A DNA stretch of 27,491 nucleotides from IMG/VR virus record IMGVR_UViG_3300029914_000110, one strand, 5' to 3'. Positions 5,074-7,836 of this stretch are shown here, piece by piece. The notes under the pieces are model-generated. The model saw only the letters and a program-made list of their open reading frames with translations, was not told the DNA's origin and did no database searches. Numbering within the stretch: the first letter of the stretch is position 1; each line of letters opens with the position of its first letter. This stretch comes from a virus. The translations under genes were made by a program, and so were the position numbers.

Positions 5074-5502
5074 CTAGGAGCGGGGTGCCCACAGAGGAAG
5101 GTAGTCGAGGATATCCACCACCTCTTCCGGCATTACCGGAACGGTTGCCAAGGCAGTTGTCACTTCACAGGGGGCACCACAATCCTCACCATAAACGGCG
5201 GGGTTGATATCTTCAAAAGTGTAGTGCTCGATCTCCGCCTTCTCCAACAGCCGCTGTACATGACGCAACTCATTCGAGTCACGAGCCCCGAGAATGATAG
5301 TGGTGATGGCCTCGTCTGCTCTCGCCAACTGATGCTTCTCACTCAACCCTATAATCTGGTGCATCTTCATCCGGCTGGCCACATGCACAGCCTGAGCCGC
5401 GATTCTCCCCGGTACCTGAACTACCTCTCCCTCTGGGGTGGAGACAGTCTCGGCCACTACAACATAGATTCGTTTTTCGGACGGAATTTTATTCTTCTTC
5501 AC
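5074..5502 (-). CDS. Peptidyl-tRNA hydrolase of the PTH2 family (aminoacyl-tRNA hydrolase-like), 142 aa, with a GTG start.
   Basis: GRIAAQAVHVASR resembles the PTH2 motif GKIAAQCSHAA. The C-terminal end reads DILDYLPLW. A GGGAGA site sits 6 nt before the GTG. Confidence 0.6.
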   Translation of the reverse strand: MKKNKIPSEKRIYVVVAETVSTPEGEVVQVPGRIAAQAVHVASRMKMHQIIGLSEKHQLARADEAITTIILGARDSNELRHVQRLLEKAEIEHYTFEDINPAVYGEDCGAPCEVTTALATVPVMPEEVVDILDYLPLWAPRS

Positions 5503-5608
5503 TATCGTCTCCCAAGTAAAAATCGACCTCGTGAATCAAGGTGAGGTTTATCAAGGTACGAACTATATCGACTTCCGACTTGAGCAACCTGTCCCAAAAT
5601 TTAATCAT
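5489..5608 (-). CDS. Small ORF of 39 aa, MIKFWDRLLKSEVDIVRTLINLTLIHEVDFYLGDDSEEE, apparently translationally coupled to its neighbours.
   Basis: Its ATG overlaps the ATP-grasp stop (ATGATTAA) and its stop overlaps the PTH2 start. There is no homology evidence. Confidence 0.25.
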   Translation of the reverse strand: MIKFWDRLLKSEVDIVRTLINLTLIHEVDFYLGDDSEEE

Positions 5609-6425
5609 GGTACACTCCGGCCCAAATGTTGGCAAACGCCTCCGGGGTCCAGTTACCAACCAAGTCTGATACTTGACCGTCTCCAATTTCTACCACCCGA
5701 GGCTGGCCGTCGTCGCGAATCGCGATGTCCACGGAGTAGAAGGGAGACGCCACGCGGGTACGAACAGTCTCAAGCAGGTCGTAAATACCGTTGGTGTCCA
5801 CCTTTGCCCACTCCCCCGAAACCCCGATAGTCCGTCCTTGGATAACGAAGAAGCGGCGTTCGTCGGTCAGTTTCTCCACCCGGCGAACACAGATGCCGCC
5901 CTCCAACTTGCCACGGAATTTTGTCATGGCATCAAGCAGTGTGAGGACATCTTGCGGTGTCGTCACCGATGGATGGTTCTCCAGCTTCAGGGACTTCACA
6001 TAGTCCTTGATAAAGTAGTGCTCCCACCCCAATGCCTGTAGAGCCAGCACGAGGTTGAACTGCGGGGTGAAACAGAACTCAGGAAAAACTACAGTATCAG
6101 GAGTCAGCCCCGCTATCAGCGGGTACCAGCACGGCAGGTGGTGACAGCGAATGTAGTCCTCCGGGCGAGTAAACAGCCGCCCACCCATCGTCTTCACCTT
6201 GTCTGTCATAGCGCGGTATTCAGCCGAGTTTAGCATCCAGCCACGATACACTACCACAGCACCATCGAACCCTCTCGGGTTGTTACTGCAATCTCCCCAG
6301 ATTCCACCTGCCTCAGTGGAGTACACAGAGTTGGGGTAGCGTTTCAGAGCGGACGCCTGCGGGGCGAAATACTCATCCAGCTTTTTCGGGTTCAGCGGGT
6401 CAGCCGGGAATATGAAGTGTAGCAT
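5601..6425 (-). CDS. ATP-grasp superfamily ligase (R2K/RimK-like), about 275 aa. The true start is ATG at 6425, not the track's 6509.
   Basis: A GGAGG site lies 10 nt upstream of the ATG at 6425. ATP-grasp signature residues are RRFFVIQGRTIGVSGEW and PFYSVDIAIRDDGQPRVVEIGDGQVSDL. Confidence 0.75.
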   Translation of the reverse strand: MLHFIFPADPLNPKKLDEYFAPQASALKRYPNSVYSTEAGGIWGDCSNNPRGFDGAVVVYRGWMLNSAEYRAMTDKVKTMGGRLFTRPEDYIRCHHLPCWYPLIAGLTPDTVVFPEFCFTPQFNLVLALQALGWEHYFIKDYVKSLKLENHPSVTTPQDVLTLLDAMTKFRGKLEGGICVRRVEKLTDERRFFVIQGRTIGVSGEWAKVDTNGIYDLLETVRTRVASPFYSVDIAIRDDGQPRVVEIGDGQVSDLVGNWTPEAFANIWAGVYHD

Positions 6426-6478
6426 ACCACCCTTTCTACCTCCGTGGTTTAGTATCCCCGGACAACCGAGGTTTGGCT

Positions 6479-6724
6479 TTAGTGGCCGTAGTTGCACCCG
6501 ACCATCCACTCCCGGCCTTGCAGGTCAGTCACTGTGGTTTCAAAGCTACCACAGCACCCCCGGCTTCTGGCTTCCTCGAACAACGCCATGGAGGTCAAGT
6601 CGGAGGTCAAGCCATACCGCTGGTTGTCGGCGTACTCCAGCCCGTCGTCCTCAACGAACGCATCCAGAGCAGCTTTCACTTCAGACGGTACTTCAATGGG
6701 GGCACTCGTGCTAAATTTTTCCAT
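6479..6724 (-). CDS. Hypothetical acidic protein, 81 aa.
   Basis: ATG with a GGAGA site. It shares orientation and tight spacing with its neighbours. Confidence 0.5.
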   Translation of the reverse strand: MEKFSTSAPIEVPSEVKAALDAFVEDDGLEYADNQRYGLTSDLTSMALFEEARSRGCCGSFETTVTDLQGREWMVGCNYGH

Positions 6725-6799
6725 GTCATCTCCGAAAAATATTCAGCGGCGAGGATACGATGAATTCAGCACATCGGCCAGACCGCACGTGTTTTGTCA

Positions 6800-6842
6800 G
6801 CTCAATCTTGAAAGTGGGGGCGGGGTGCTAGCCTACCCCCAC
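6800..6842 (-). terminator. Candidate terminator downstream of the Ku gene.
   Basis: A 7-bp GC stem, GTGGGGG..CCCCCAC, with a 15-nt loop is followed on the minus strand by TTTCAAGATTG. Confidence 0.45.
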
Positions 6843-6849
6843 GATGTCG

Positions 6850-7836
6850 TTACTTACCAGCCTTTGCAGCCTTCTTGTTGGCCAGTGAAGCCTTCAAAGC
6901 GGCCATCAGGTCAACCGTGACCACTGCGGTGGCGTCCTGCTTCTTGACTTCAGGAGCGGCCACGCCAGCCTTCTTGGCGGTCAGCAGGTTGCGGAAGCGA
7001 ATCGAGAACTTGTCGTTGTAGTCCGAGGAGACGAACTTGTCAGACATCGCCTCGCCAAGCTGCTTCGCCAGAGTCTTCTCGTCCTCGCTCAGGACAACCG
7101 GGGCAACCTTGTCGAAGATGCGGATTTCGTGTTCGAAGTACACGAAGTGAACCGCCAGACCAACCTTCAAAGGGCGGATGATGACAGTCTGTTCACGCCC
7201 CCTCTGAGCGGTCTGAGCAACAGCCACCTGACCCGTGCTCACCAGCATCTCGCGGAAGACGGCGAGGGCGCGTTCGACAATCGAACCACCATCGGCTCCG
7301 AGGTACTCGGCAGCTTCGAAGTACAGGGGGTCAACTTCCGTCGCCGGAACCAGCTTCTCAACGGTCATGACCTTGTCGGCCAGAACCATGCAGCCCTTCT
7401 TCTCGTCGTCAGTGATGACGAAAAACTTGCCGTCGTCATCCTTCATGCCCTTCAGGGACTGGGCACGCTCGACAATCGCCTCGCACGCCTCACACTTCAT
7501 CGCACCCTGCTTAAGCTGTCCGTACACGGGAGCCTCTTCAGAGGCTTCGTGGTTGCACTGGTGAATCATGTTGGTCTTGAACTTCTCGGAGTCCTCAATG
7601 ACCTTGTAGGTCTTGACGGGGACGGTCAGGCCATTCGCGCCCTCGATGACGACCAGCTTACCCGACCAAGTCGAACGGCCACAGCCAACCTTCTCGGGGG
7701 CGGCGGCGTTCACATCGGCGAACTCAACCTTCGGGTGGAGAAGGTTGTTCAACTTGCTGGAGAGGTCGGCGACACTAGGCTTCGCGGGAGCCGCGACGGG
7801 GGTTTCGGTCTTCGATGTGTTCTTTGCCTTTGCCAT
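6850..7836 (-). CDS. ku: Ku-like DNA end-binding protein (NHEJ Ku homologue), 328 aa. It has a Lys/Ala-rich N-terminal extension and a Cys-containing insertion.
   Basis: WSGKLVVIEGANGLTVPVKTY resembles bacterial Ku WKGAISFGLVNVPVKLY. The core reads REQTVIIRPLKVGLAVHFVYFEHEIR. The C-terminus DLMAALKASL..KKAAKAGK is a Ku hallmark. It lies downstream of promoter P2 and an AAGGAG site. Confidence 0.75.
   Translation of the reverse strand: MAKAKNTSKTETPVAAPAKPSVADLSSKLNNLLHPKVEFADVNAAAPEKVGCGRSTWSGKLVVIEGANGLTVPVKTYKVIEDSEKFKTNMIHQCNHEASEEAPVYGQLKQGAMKCEACEAIVERAQSLKGMKDDDGKFFVITDDEKKGCMVLADKVMTVEKLVPATEVDPLYFEAAEYLGADGGSIVERALAVFREMLVSTGQVAVAQTAQRGREQTVIIRPLKVGLAVHFVYFEHEIRIFDKVAPVVLSEDEKTLAKQLGEAMSDKFVSSDYNDKFSIRFRNLLTAKKAGVAAPEVKKQDATAVVTVDLMAALKASLANKKAAKAGK

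Follow-up and report, generated by a model that had tools for sequence, protein, structure and literature searches.

What keeps the genes of a Ku homologue, an ATP-grasp ligase and a peptidyl-tRNA hydrolase 2 (PTH2)-like protein together on a phage chromosome? This question is raised by positions 5074-7836 of a 27,491-nt virus stretch (IMG/VR record IMGVR_UViG_3300029914_000110; hereafter the window, that is, the whole stretch of DNA analyzed), whose origin was read as an uncultivated jumbo phage of soil or peat. A preliminary description of this DNA had placed the three genes in one operon and proposed that they form a DNA-end and translation-rescue module. In the reading that we favor, with a probability of roughly 0.6, they are instead three separately acting accessory genes in a plastic, conserved early-gene neighborhood downstream of rIIA/rIIB, probably co-expressed in one early block and not dependent on one another.

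The window matched identically six metagenome contigs of the Joint Genome Institute (JGI), the longest of which is 36 kb, and a megablast search with positions 4900-8300 against 50,697 GenBank phage records gave no match. The nearest cultured phage by protein similarity was the Acidobacteriota phage Tunturi_5 (309 kb; PMC11924767), whose proteins showed 36% identity to the PTH2-like protein and 50% identity to a second ATP-grasp protein encoded elsewhere in the window. Every gene in and around 5074-7836 is carried by the minus strand, and the span given for the cluster was exact, running from the stop of a 142-aa open reading frame (ORF) at 5074 to the start of a 328-aa ORF at 7836.

The three proteins encoded at 5074-7836

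The 328-aa product of 6850-7836 (minus strand) was identified as a bacterial-type Ku, in agreement with the earlier assignment, by its matches to Pfam PF02735 (E = 1.7e-20, residues 69-245), to the PHROG family 'Ku-like DNA end binding' (2.4e-29) and, over the full length of the profile (12-259 of 259), to TIGR02772 Ku_bact (4e-39). The last of these was the sole NCBIfam match among the proteins of the block, and because its score of 134.5 bits fell under the equivalog cut-off of 150, the protein is a divergent homologue and is not called an equivalog. Residues 70-322 aligned to the solved Ku proteins of Bacillus subtilis and Mycobacterium tuberculosis (E = 1.6e-14 for the match to PDB sequences). 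In an AlphaFold2 (AF2) model built on an alignment of 45 homologues, the core was predicted with confidence (predicted local distance difference test score, pLDDT, 85-97 at residues ~130-290), and Foldseek placed bacterial Ku structures in the top seven ranks (template modeling score, TM, 0.66-0.80), with 9vnq, 9i91 and 8v53 as the best PDB matches (TM 0.76-0.80) and Ku70/80 next. The barrel-and-bridge core of Ku is present in this model.

Two peculiarities of this Ku had been pointed out, a Lys/Ala-rich N-terminal extension and a Cys-containing insertion. The extension proved to be real; it covers residues 1-~53 (MAKAK...), was modeled at low confidence with one predicted helix, and is a common feature of the phage Ku clade, being found in the six closest metagenomic phage relatives and absent in bacterial Ku. 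The insertion is also real, but its novelty is limited: within the His/Cys knuckle H92-x-C94-x-H96 ... C115-x-x-C118, the C115xxC118 pair aligned with the CxxC of the B. subtilis and M. tuberculosis proteins, which leaves ~10 loop residues and the additional His/Cys as the only new part. Of the six closest relatives among phages, five keep at least three knuckle ligands, an arrangement that suggests a zinc knuckle. Near the other end of the protein, the minimal C-terminal motif DLMAALKASL (309-318) is near-invariant across bacterial and phage Ku, with D309, L310, M311, A312, A313, L314, K315, S317 and L318 invariant or at least 90% conserved in the 45 sequences, and this region has been reported to bind LigD (PMC13201618; PMC12848934). 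The basic Lys-rich 'extended' C-terminal tail comprises only ~10 residues. A protein of this fold and with these motifs would be expected to thread as a homodimeric ring onto the phage DNA ends, where it could block host exonucleases; its minimal C-terminal motif may then recruit a ligase, either the host LigD or a phage ATP-dependent enzyme, that would circularize the genome or reseal breaks.

The ATP-grasp ligase recognized earlier is encoded at 5601-6425 (minus strand). Its start is most likely ATG 6425, giving 274 aa, and not 6509, because the homologues start at a Met that the long ORF has at position 29, this ATG is preceded by a Shine-Dalgarno-like ribosome-binding site (AGGGTGG), and a preceding 81-aa ORF ends at 6479. 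The protein matched PF14243 (R2K_3) with E = 6e-18 and 66 bits against a gathering threshold of 26.3, and R2K_2 with a lower 36 bits; about 1,700 homologues were retrieved, and most of those listed were 43-49% identical to it. Members of R2K.3 are defined by two lysines in or after RAGNYA strand 2, an Asp in strand 4 of the kinase-like domain and, in the last strand, an ExGD motif replacing ExN (PMC4431377), and all of these hallmark residues were found. The '2K' lysines lie in K140-D-Y-V-K144-S-L-K147, in which K140, K144 and K147 are invariant among 23 sequences, and R181, D233 and E246-I-G248-D249, the last providing the ExGD motif, are likewise invariant. By these residues, the protein is a member of R2K.3 with an intact putative catalytic constellation, and it might use ATP to form an acyl-phosphate and add an amino acid or peptide to a carboxylate of a protein target. 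R2K.3 has been described as bacterial and rarely archaeal, phages being noted only for R2K.2 (Burroughs, Zhang & Aravind 2015, PMC4431377), and no substrate is known for any member of the family (PMC4431377). A tblastn search with the window protein against the same 50,697 GenBank phage records gave no match, and the closest bacterial homologues examined (43-48% identity) were solitary chromosomal genes amid housekeeping genes.

The 142-aa product of 5074-5502 (minus strand) had been called PTH2-type, and this assignment held. Its match to PF01981 (PTH2) was marginal (E = 1.1e-5; 26.0 bits versus a cut-off of 23), a precomputed PF01981 match existed for only about a third of its family, and phmmer searches of PDB sequences with this protein and the ATP-grasp protein yielded nothing useful, with no PDB sequence found for the former. 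The AF2 model built on a 37-sequence alignment, however, reached a pLDDT of 95.1, and its 14 best PDB matches in Foldseek were all Pth2 (E from 2.7e-6 to 8.5e-3; the next match, E = 0.14), among them the proteins of A. fulgidus, M. jannaschii, P. horikoshii, T. acidophilum and S. solfataricus and human Bit1. The protein as modeled has the PTH2 alpha/beta fold.

Strict conservation was observed in 240 members of the family at R33 (238), Q37 (239), H40 (238), D98 (240) and Y104 (239), and the gene is under strong purifying selection. When the family profile was compared with the PDB Pth2 24bt_A, a match of only E = 0.19, G-R replaced G-K, and D98 aligned with the Asp of D-A-G. At the position of the Thr in D-A-G-x-T, the family (D-x-N-x-x-x-Y) has no Thr; the alignment of this loop is uncertain, and Tyr104 lies two residues on. 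Elements of the Pth2 signature that are kept comprise G-[K/R]-x-x-x-Q-x-x-H, the Asp, T-A-x-x-x-x-P and the C-terminal hydrophobic strand, and those new to the family are the near-invariant Tyr104 and the C-terminal motif (G)ILDYLPLW. Conservation of this kind is what an active enzyme whose catalytic residues have changed would show. As the profile retrieved only 357 proteins at E <= 1e-3 from 1.84 billion representatives, the family is, at the level of sequence profiles, small, discrete and unconnected to canonical PTH2. Its sole carrier among GenBank phages was Tunturi_5 (gp176, annotated as hypothetical).

The claim that PTH2 is uncommon in phages was not borne out. Structural matches in BFVD, at 11-24% identity, included RaK2, Atu_ph07, phiN3, Myrna, Klosneuvirus and other giant viruses, and PTH2 has been reported across jumbo phages (Iyer et al., PMC7824862), in a study that assigned PTH2 and R2K ligases there to independent roles in host takeover and RNA repair. 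What is unusual here is thus the Arg-Asp-Tyr family itself and not the presence of PTH2 in a large phage. We propose that the protein may cleave the ester bond of dropped-off peptidyl-tRNA or N-acyl-aminoacyl-tRNA and so recycle tRNAs into a pool supplemented by the phage's own 13-14 tRNA genes; this substrate is the least certain step of the overall picture. A link to the heavy tRNA investment of the phage had been anticipated, and an RNA-repair or translation context is indeed suggested by the 13-gene tRNA array, by an arginyl-tRNA-synthetase (ArgRS)-like gene and by the HNH-RNA-ligase genes near homologues of the PTH2-like gene.

Related loci and the competing explanations

Related loci (L-numbers below) were collected in four ways, with the PTH2-like protein, Ku, R2K.3 and the major vault protein (MVP) homologue encoded directly downstream of the PTH2-like gene as seeds, and were scanned with profiles of the three families and of other window proteins. 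Single-protein scans of IMG/VR with Ku or R2K.3 gave no match, and alignment-based queries were needed. One arrangement (I), rIIA-rIIB-Ku-...-R2K.3-...-PTH2-like-MVP, was found in the window and in L023 (a 328-kb contig). It is shared by L017 (a 123-kb contig), in which the Ku, PTH2-like and MVP genes are intact and R2K.3 is reduced to its first 37 codons; this remnant (11769-11918, between Ku and PTH2-like) is 51% identical to the window protein and represents a clear case of gene decay. In L019, Ku-PTH2-like-MVP occurs with no R2K.3. A second arrangement (II), Ku...PTH2-like...(225-aa gene)...R2K.3, sometimes followed by a gene with an ATP-dependent DNA-ligase domain, was found in L021, L025, L041, L042, L046 and L048.

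Elsewhere the genes occur apart. In L009, L012 and L026, which read rIIA-rIIB-PTH2-like, neither Ku nor R2K.3 was found within 10 kb and no MVP gene was nearby, and an HNH-RNA-ligase gene lies 2.5 kb downstream of the PTH2-like gene. In Tunturi_5 the latter is situated between the SbcD and DnaB genes, and in the five loci of a clade B (L010, L011, L014, L015 and L016, around 8700-14300) it lies 0.4-3.5 kb from a tyrosine recombinase gene. R2K.3 loci without both Ku and PTH2-like made up 14 of 21 in IMG/VR. The three genes co-occur only within one related clade having many other genes in common, and each is lost or stands alone elsewhere; for this reason, an inherited neighborhood with shared expression timing fits better than mutual dependence. 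The module put forward initially is contradicted, as a fixed set of three genes, by relatives that carry each gene in the absence of the other two.

Several observations weigh against our reading. Ku, PTH2-like and R2K.3 lay within about 10-15 kb of one another in at least eight divergent lineages with changed gene order, and the co-linked proteins were only 35-58% identical; the linkage could thus arise from selection and not just from shared descent. A 39-aa ORF shares 8 nt with the end of R2K.3 and 14 nt with the beginning of the PTH2-like gene, overlaps that suggest translational coupling. Among the catalytic residues whose conservation was to be checked, which we take to be Lys18, Asp86 and Thr90 in S. 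solfataricus Pth2, the Asp is kept, but the canonical Lys is Arg in 238 of 240 family members and the canonical Thr is apparently not kept, so that peptidyl-tRNA hydrolase activity is not assured for this family. Finally, the ligase that the preliminary description had suggested looking for was not found in the 27-36 kb available of the window phage. The relatives L021 and L025 encode proteins of ~270 aa with a PF01068 ATP-dependent DNA ligase domain (E about 1e-10), and this protein is a candidate ligase partner of the phage Ku. The genes concerned (11422-12228 in L021 and 15723-16553 in L025) are located 0.6-1.5 kb from R2K.3 and 10-14 kb from Ku.

Because the linkage has survived reordering at 35-58% identity, we retained as a minority rival a functional module in which Ku, R2K.3 and the PTH2-like protein, maybe with the small ORFs, act in a common pathway, although we consider it unlikely. 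The ligase might tag a protein on which Ku or the hydrolase then acts, or the hydrolase might reverse or edit an ester-linked product connected with the reaction of the ligase. Such a module would agree with the co-localization within 10-15 kb in the window, L021, L023, L025, L041, L042, L046 and L048, with the R2K.3 remnant of L017, with the common strand, the two strong terminators that enclose the block and the overlapping stop/start codons, and with the absence of R2K.3 from the GenBank phage records in the tblastn search, by which it is no generic phage trait. The decay of R2K.3 in L017 next to intact Ku and PTH2-like genes argues the other way, as do the occurrence of each gene without the others in related phages and the solitary R2K.3 genes of bacteria, and we know of no chemistry that connects ATP-grasp ligases with PTH2 enzymes. 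ATP-grasp ligases take free amino acids and not aminoacyl-tRNA (PMC4431377). Moreover, the co-occurring lineages all belong to one clade with many common genes, so that common descent explains the linkage.

A doubtful reading, which concerns the hydrolase alone, is that the PTH2-like protein keeps the fold and has another substrate, for example aminoacyl-tRNA, some other ester-linked adduct of a nucleotide or protein, or the blocked 3' end of a nucleic acid, and that it would serve DNA/RNA end metabolism rather than ribosome rescue. The Arg in place of Lys, the new Tyr104 and the family motif at the C-terminus are what such a change might look like, the profile search did not reach canonical PTH2, with the PDB Pth2 at only E = 0.19, and the neighbors Ku, SbcD and DnaB (Tunturi_5) and the tyrosine recombinases (five clade-B loci) belong to DNA metabolism; on the other hand, most canonical signature positions are kept, the positive charge of Lys can also be supplied by Arg, RNA-ligase and tRNA contexts occur too, and we know of no other activity of the PTH2 fold. 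By analogy with the enzymes that eukaryotic vaults house, the PTH2-like protein might instead be a partner or cargo of the phage MVP, the conserved unit being PTH2-like-MVP, a vault-like shell with an esterase. The PTH2-like gene lies directly upstream of the MVP gene, with a gap of 70-130 nt, in five lineages (window, L008/L031, L017, L019 and L023), and a protein of SPFH/Band-7, the fold class of the MVP shoulder, is encoded 2 kb upstream of it in L010 and L011. We nevertheless judge this to be very improbable, considering that nine of 11 MVP loci in IMG/VR have no PTH2-like gene within 6 kb, that the two genes are ~47 kb apart in contigs 3300014160_000001 and 3300041809_000571, that many phages with a PTH2-like gene have no MVP gene nearby, and that a promoter-like TATAGT element lies between both genes in the window; as a universal pair, PTH2-like-MVP was rejected on the first two of these counts. 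Quite improbable, too, is a co-inherited functional system of this soil jumbo-phage clade made up of Ku, R2K.3, the Arg-Asp-Tyr PTH2-like protein and MVP, either with a vault-like shell that would house or work with the esterase and a peptide ligase, or with a PTH2-like protein acting on a non-tRNA ester substrate in DNA-end or protein-tag chemistry. Co-localization that persists through the permutations of gene order would be compatible with such a system.

Transcription signals and other genes of the window

The block of separately acting genes that we favor is preceded on the minus strand by a rIIA-like gene (9540-11966) and rIIB (8315-9547; PHROG rIIB, 2e-56). Near residue 100 of the rIIA-like protein, a weak match to a DnaJ-type CxxCxGxG zinc finger was seen (E = 0.005, below the cut-off). 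The upstream boundary is set by an intrinsic terminator 3' of rIIB (8240-8278, minus strand), a 12-bp GC-rich hairpin with a U-tract whose 77-nt fold had -36.3 kcal/mol (z = -5.1; equaled by 0 of 200 shuffles), and the downstream boundary by a terminator 3' of the MVP gene (2435-2466, minus strand), where UUUUU comes after a GC-rich hairpin of 10 bp (z = -2.8). A further GC-rich hairpin directly 3' of the Ku stop (6814-6842, minus strand; GUGGGGGU...GCCCCCAC and then UUUC; 73-nt fold of -23.4 kcal/mol, z = -2.0, equaled by three of 200 shuffles) is possibly a weak terminator or processing site. A terminator between R2K.3 and the PTH2-like gene was rejected (z = -0.9), the scan having found fewer sites than expected.

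Upstream of Ku, the promoter-like 15-mer CCGGTATACTGTAAA, which contains a -10-like TATACT, is located at 7856-7870 (minus strand), 20 nt 5' of the start, and overlaps a sigma-70-like site (10/12). Another exact copy precedes a 241-aa gene (2121-2135), and a copy with two mismatches precedes rIIA (11966-11980), making three matches against 0.5 expected, each about 20 nt 5' of a start codon. The motif is probably a promoter class of this phage lineage. A TATACT-like element is found directly 5' of Ku in L017, L023 and L025; the exact 15-mer was rejected as a feature conserved in relatives, which keep only this element. As for the operon claimed for the three genes, the shared strand, the short gaps and the single terminator-bounded block speak for it, and a single operon of the 81-aa ORF, R2K.3 and the PTH2-like gene is possible; for Ku, membership is uncertain in view of the promoter-like motif in front of it and the hairpin behind it.

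Two small ORFs lie between the three genes. The 81-aa product of 6479-6724 (minus strand) belongs to phrog_33577 (E = 3e-13), and tblastn found matches in 32 phages of Pseudomonas, Pectobacterium, Enterobacter and Erythrobacter with genomes of about 95-150 kb. It was not found in the related jumbo-phage loci, and the gene therefore looks like a mobile small gene; its candidacy as a conserved partner or substrate of R2K.3 was dismissed on this absence and on its homologues in phages without R2K.3. The 39-aa ORF (5489-5608, minus strand) was called by JGI on six of six contigs and is of uncertain reality, with no homologue found outside this phage lineage. Between rIIB and Ku, a zinc-ribbon-like 106-aa protein with a CxxC...CxxC pattern (7888-8208, minus strand) was also called in six of six metagenome contigs, and had no significant match in Pfam, PHROG or NCBIfam. 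PADLOC reported no defense-system match for any gene of the block.

The MVP homologue (2484-4943, minus strand; 819 aa) matched MVP_shoulder (3.5e-26), Vault_3 (1e-9) and, weakly, Band_7, and homologues with 51-66% identity were found in at least 11 jumbo-phage contigs of IMG/VR. In the literature searched, the one report of phage MVPs is a 2023 preprint about gut phages (10.1101/2023.11.10.566534). Farther along, a protein of 195-225 aa without a family match is encoded at 782-1459 (minus strand) and recurred, strongly conserved, in L021, L025, L041, L042 and L046 with E from 1e-35 to 1e-57; its gene is directly upstream of R2K.3 in the permuted arrangement and ~3.6 kb beyond the PTH2-like gene in the window.

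The second ATP-grasp gene (18323-19168, minus strand; 281 aa) exists as described, but it is not a close paralogue of the first. Its product matched both Pfam R2K_3 (5.5e-14) and R2K_2 (1.2e-11) and ends in ...VLEINSINGAG, the ExN motif of R2K.2; with this motif and a BLASTP match to the first protein of only E = 0.018 and 22 identical of 73 residues (30%), a recent duplication of R2K.3 was ruled out. The placement in R2K clades that had been called for thus assigned the first protein to R2K.3 and the second to the R2K.2 type. The latter is 50% identical to Tunturi_5 gp297, which is annotated as 'ribosomal protein S6 glutaminyl transferase', and found matches in 56 phage records, mostly of jumbo phages.

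The tRNA array (17450-26911, minus strand) comprises 13 genes according to ARAGORN and 13 according to Rfam, and the two sets differ, Rfam adding a 134-nt match at 23669-23802 and missing the tRNA-His at 26081-26158. Over-long matches of 86-134 nt (21873-21958, 23385-23474, 23669-23802 and 26819-26911) suggest tRNAs with insertions or introns. Amid four tRNA-Arg genes lies the gene of the 357-aa ArgRS-like protein (22002-23075, minus strand), in which a DALR anticodon-binding domain (8.6e-8) is accompanied by a short part of the catalytic domain; the protein scored far under the cut-off for argS and seems to be truncated or divergent.

Significance and comparison with known systems

Ku in phages, and R2K ligases and PTH2 in jumbo phages, have already been published. 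New are the Arg-Asp-Tyr PTH2-like family, the occurrence in phages of R2K.3, as distinct from R2K.2, a clade of Ku proteins that carry an N-terminal extension and are encoded beside rIIB, and the recurrent neighborhood that includes an MVP homologue. If the favored reading is true, the locus amounts to correctly annotated accessory genes of a jumbo phage, with little consequence beyond cataloguing. Even so, the PTH2-like family, nearly unknown in cultured phages, offers a natural test of the residues needed for Pth2 chemistry, and with R2K.3 extending to phages, this family might become experimentally tractable through a cultured relative of the clade. A Ku with the LigD motif in a jumbo phage, probably of Acidobacteriota, suggests that hijacking of non-homologous end joining (NHEJ) or end protection extends beyond mycobacteriophages. 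The block is also adjoined by a well-conserved phage homologue of MVP, a protein noted in phages, in the literature searched, in one preprint only.

Compared with the Ku proteins of bacterial NHEJ (B. subtilis YkoV and M. tuberculosis Ku), the window protein has in common the single-domain core of barrel and bridge, the position of the CxxC, the DLMAALKxSL motif and a Lys-rich tail, and differs by the ~53-aa N-terminal extension, by a loop that is ~10 residues longer and bears the extra His/Cys, and by an extended C-terminus that is very short, at about 10 aa. The Ku proteins of mycobacteriophages Omega and Corndog, likewise phage-borne, were its best GenBank phage matches (26-28% identity). 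According to the account of Pitcher et al. 2006 given in PMC12848934, they recruit the host LigD for genome circularization. Unlike them, the window Ku sits in a jumbo phage near rIIB. Gam of phage Mu is, like the window Ku, a phage-encoded Ku-fold protein, and likely shields linear DNA ends from host exonuclease; the window protein differs from it in being a complete Ku of the bacterial type that carries the C-terminal motif for LigD binding, and searches of Pfam and PHROG with this protein returned no match to the Gam family.

As in sce1853, the R2K.3 type, the first ATP-grasp protein has both lysines, the pre-ATP-grasp region, Asp233 and ExGD. In contrast to the bacterial R2K.3 operons, its gene has no GNAT, R2K.2 or ADP-ribosylglycohydrolase neighbor, and in contrast to R2K.3 as described, this type lies in a jumbo-phage clade. 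The second ATP-grasp protein shares the ExN motif and a similar length with the R2K.2/RimK-like ATP-grasps of jumbo phages, and is 30-50% identical to proteins of Tunturi_5, RsoM2USA, CBB, GAP32 and Brevundimonas jumbo phages.

With archaeal and eukaryotic Pth2 (1XTY of S. solfataricus, 3ERJ of A. fulgidus and 1Q7S, human Bit1) and the PTH2 proteins of jumbo phages and giant viruses, the PTH2-like protein has its alpha/beta fold in common (Foldseek E about 1e-6, TM 0.6-0.79), as well as G-x-x-x-x-Q-x-x-H, the Asp, T-A...P and the C-terminal strand. It departs from them in its 11-24% identity, the Arg for Lys, the apparent lack of the Thr, Tyr104 and the ILDYLPLW tail, and its 142 aa exceed the ~115 aa of Pth2 through an extra N-terminal beta-hairpin of ~25 aa. 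The PTH2 proteins reported for jumbo phages (PMC7824862) and the PTH2-like protein of the window are alike in their setting, both being encoded by tRNA-rich jumbo phages.

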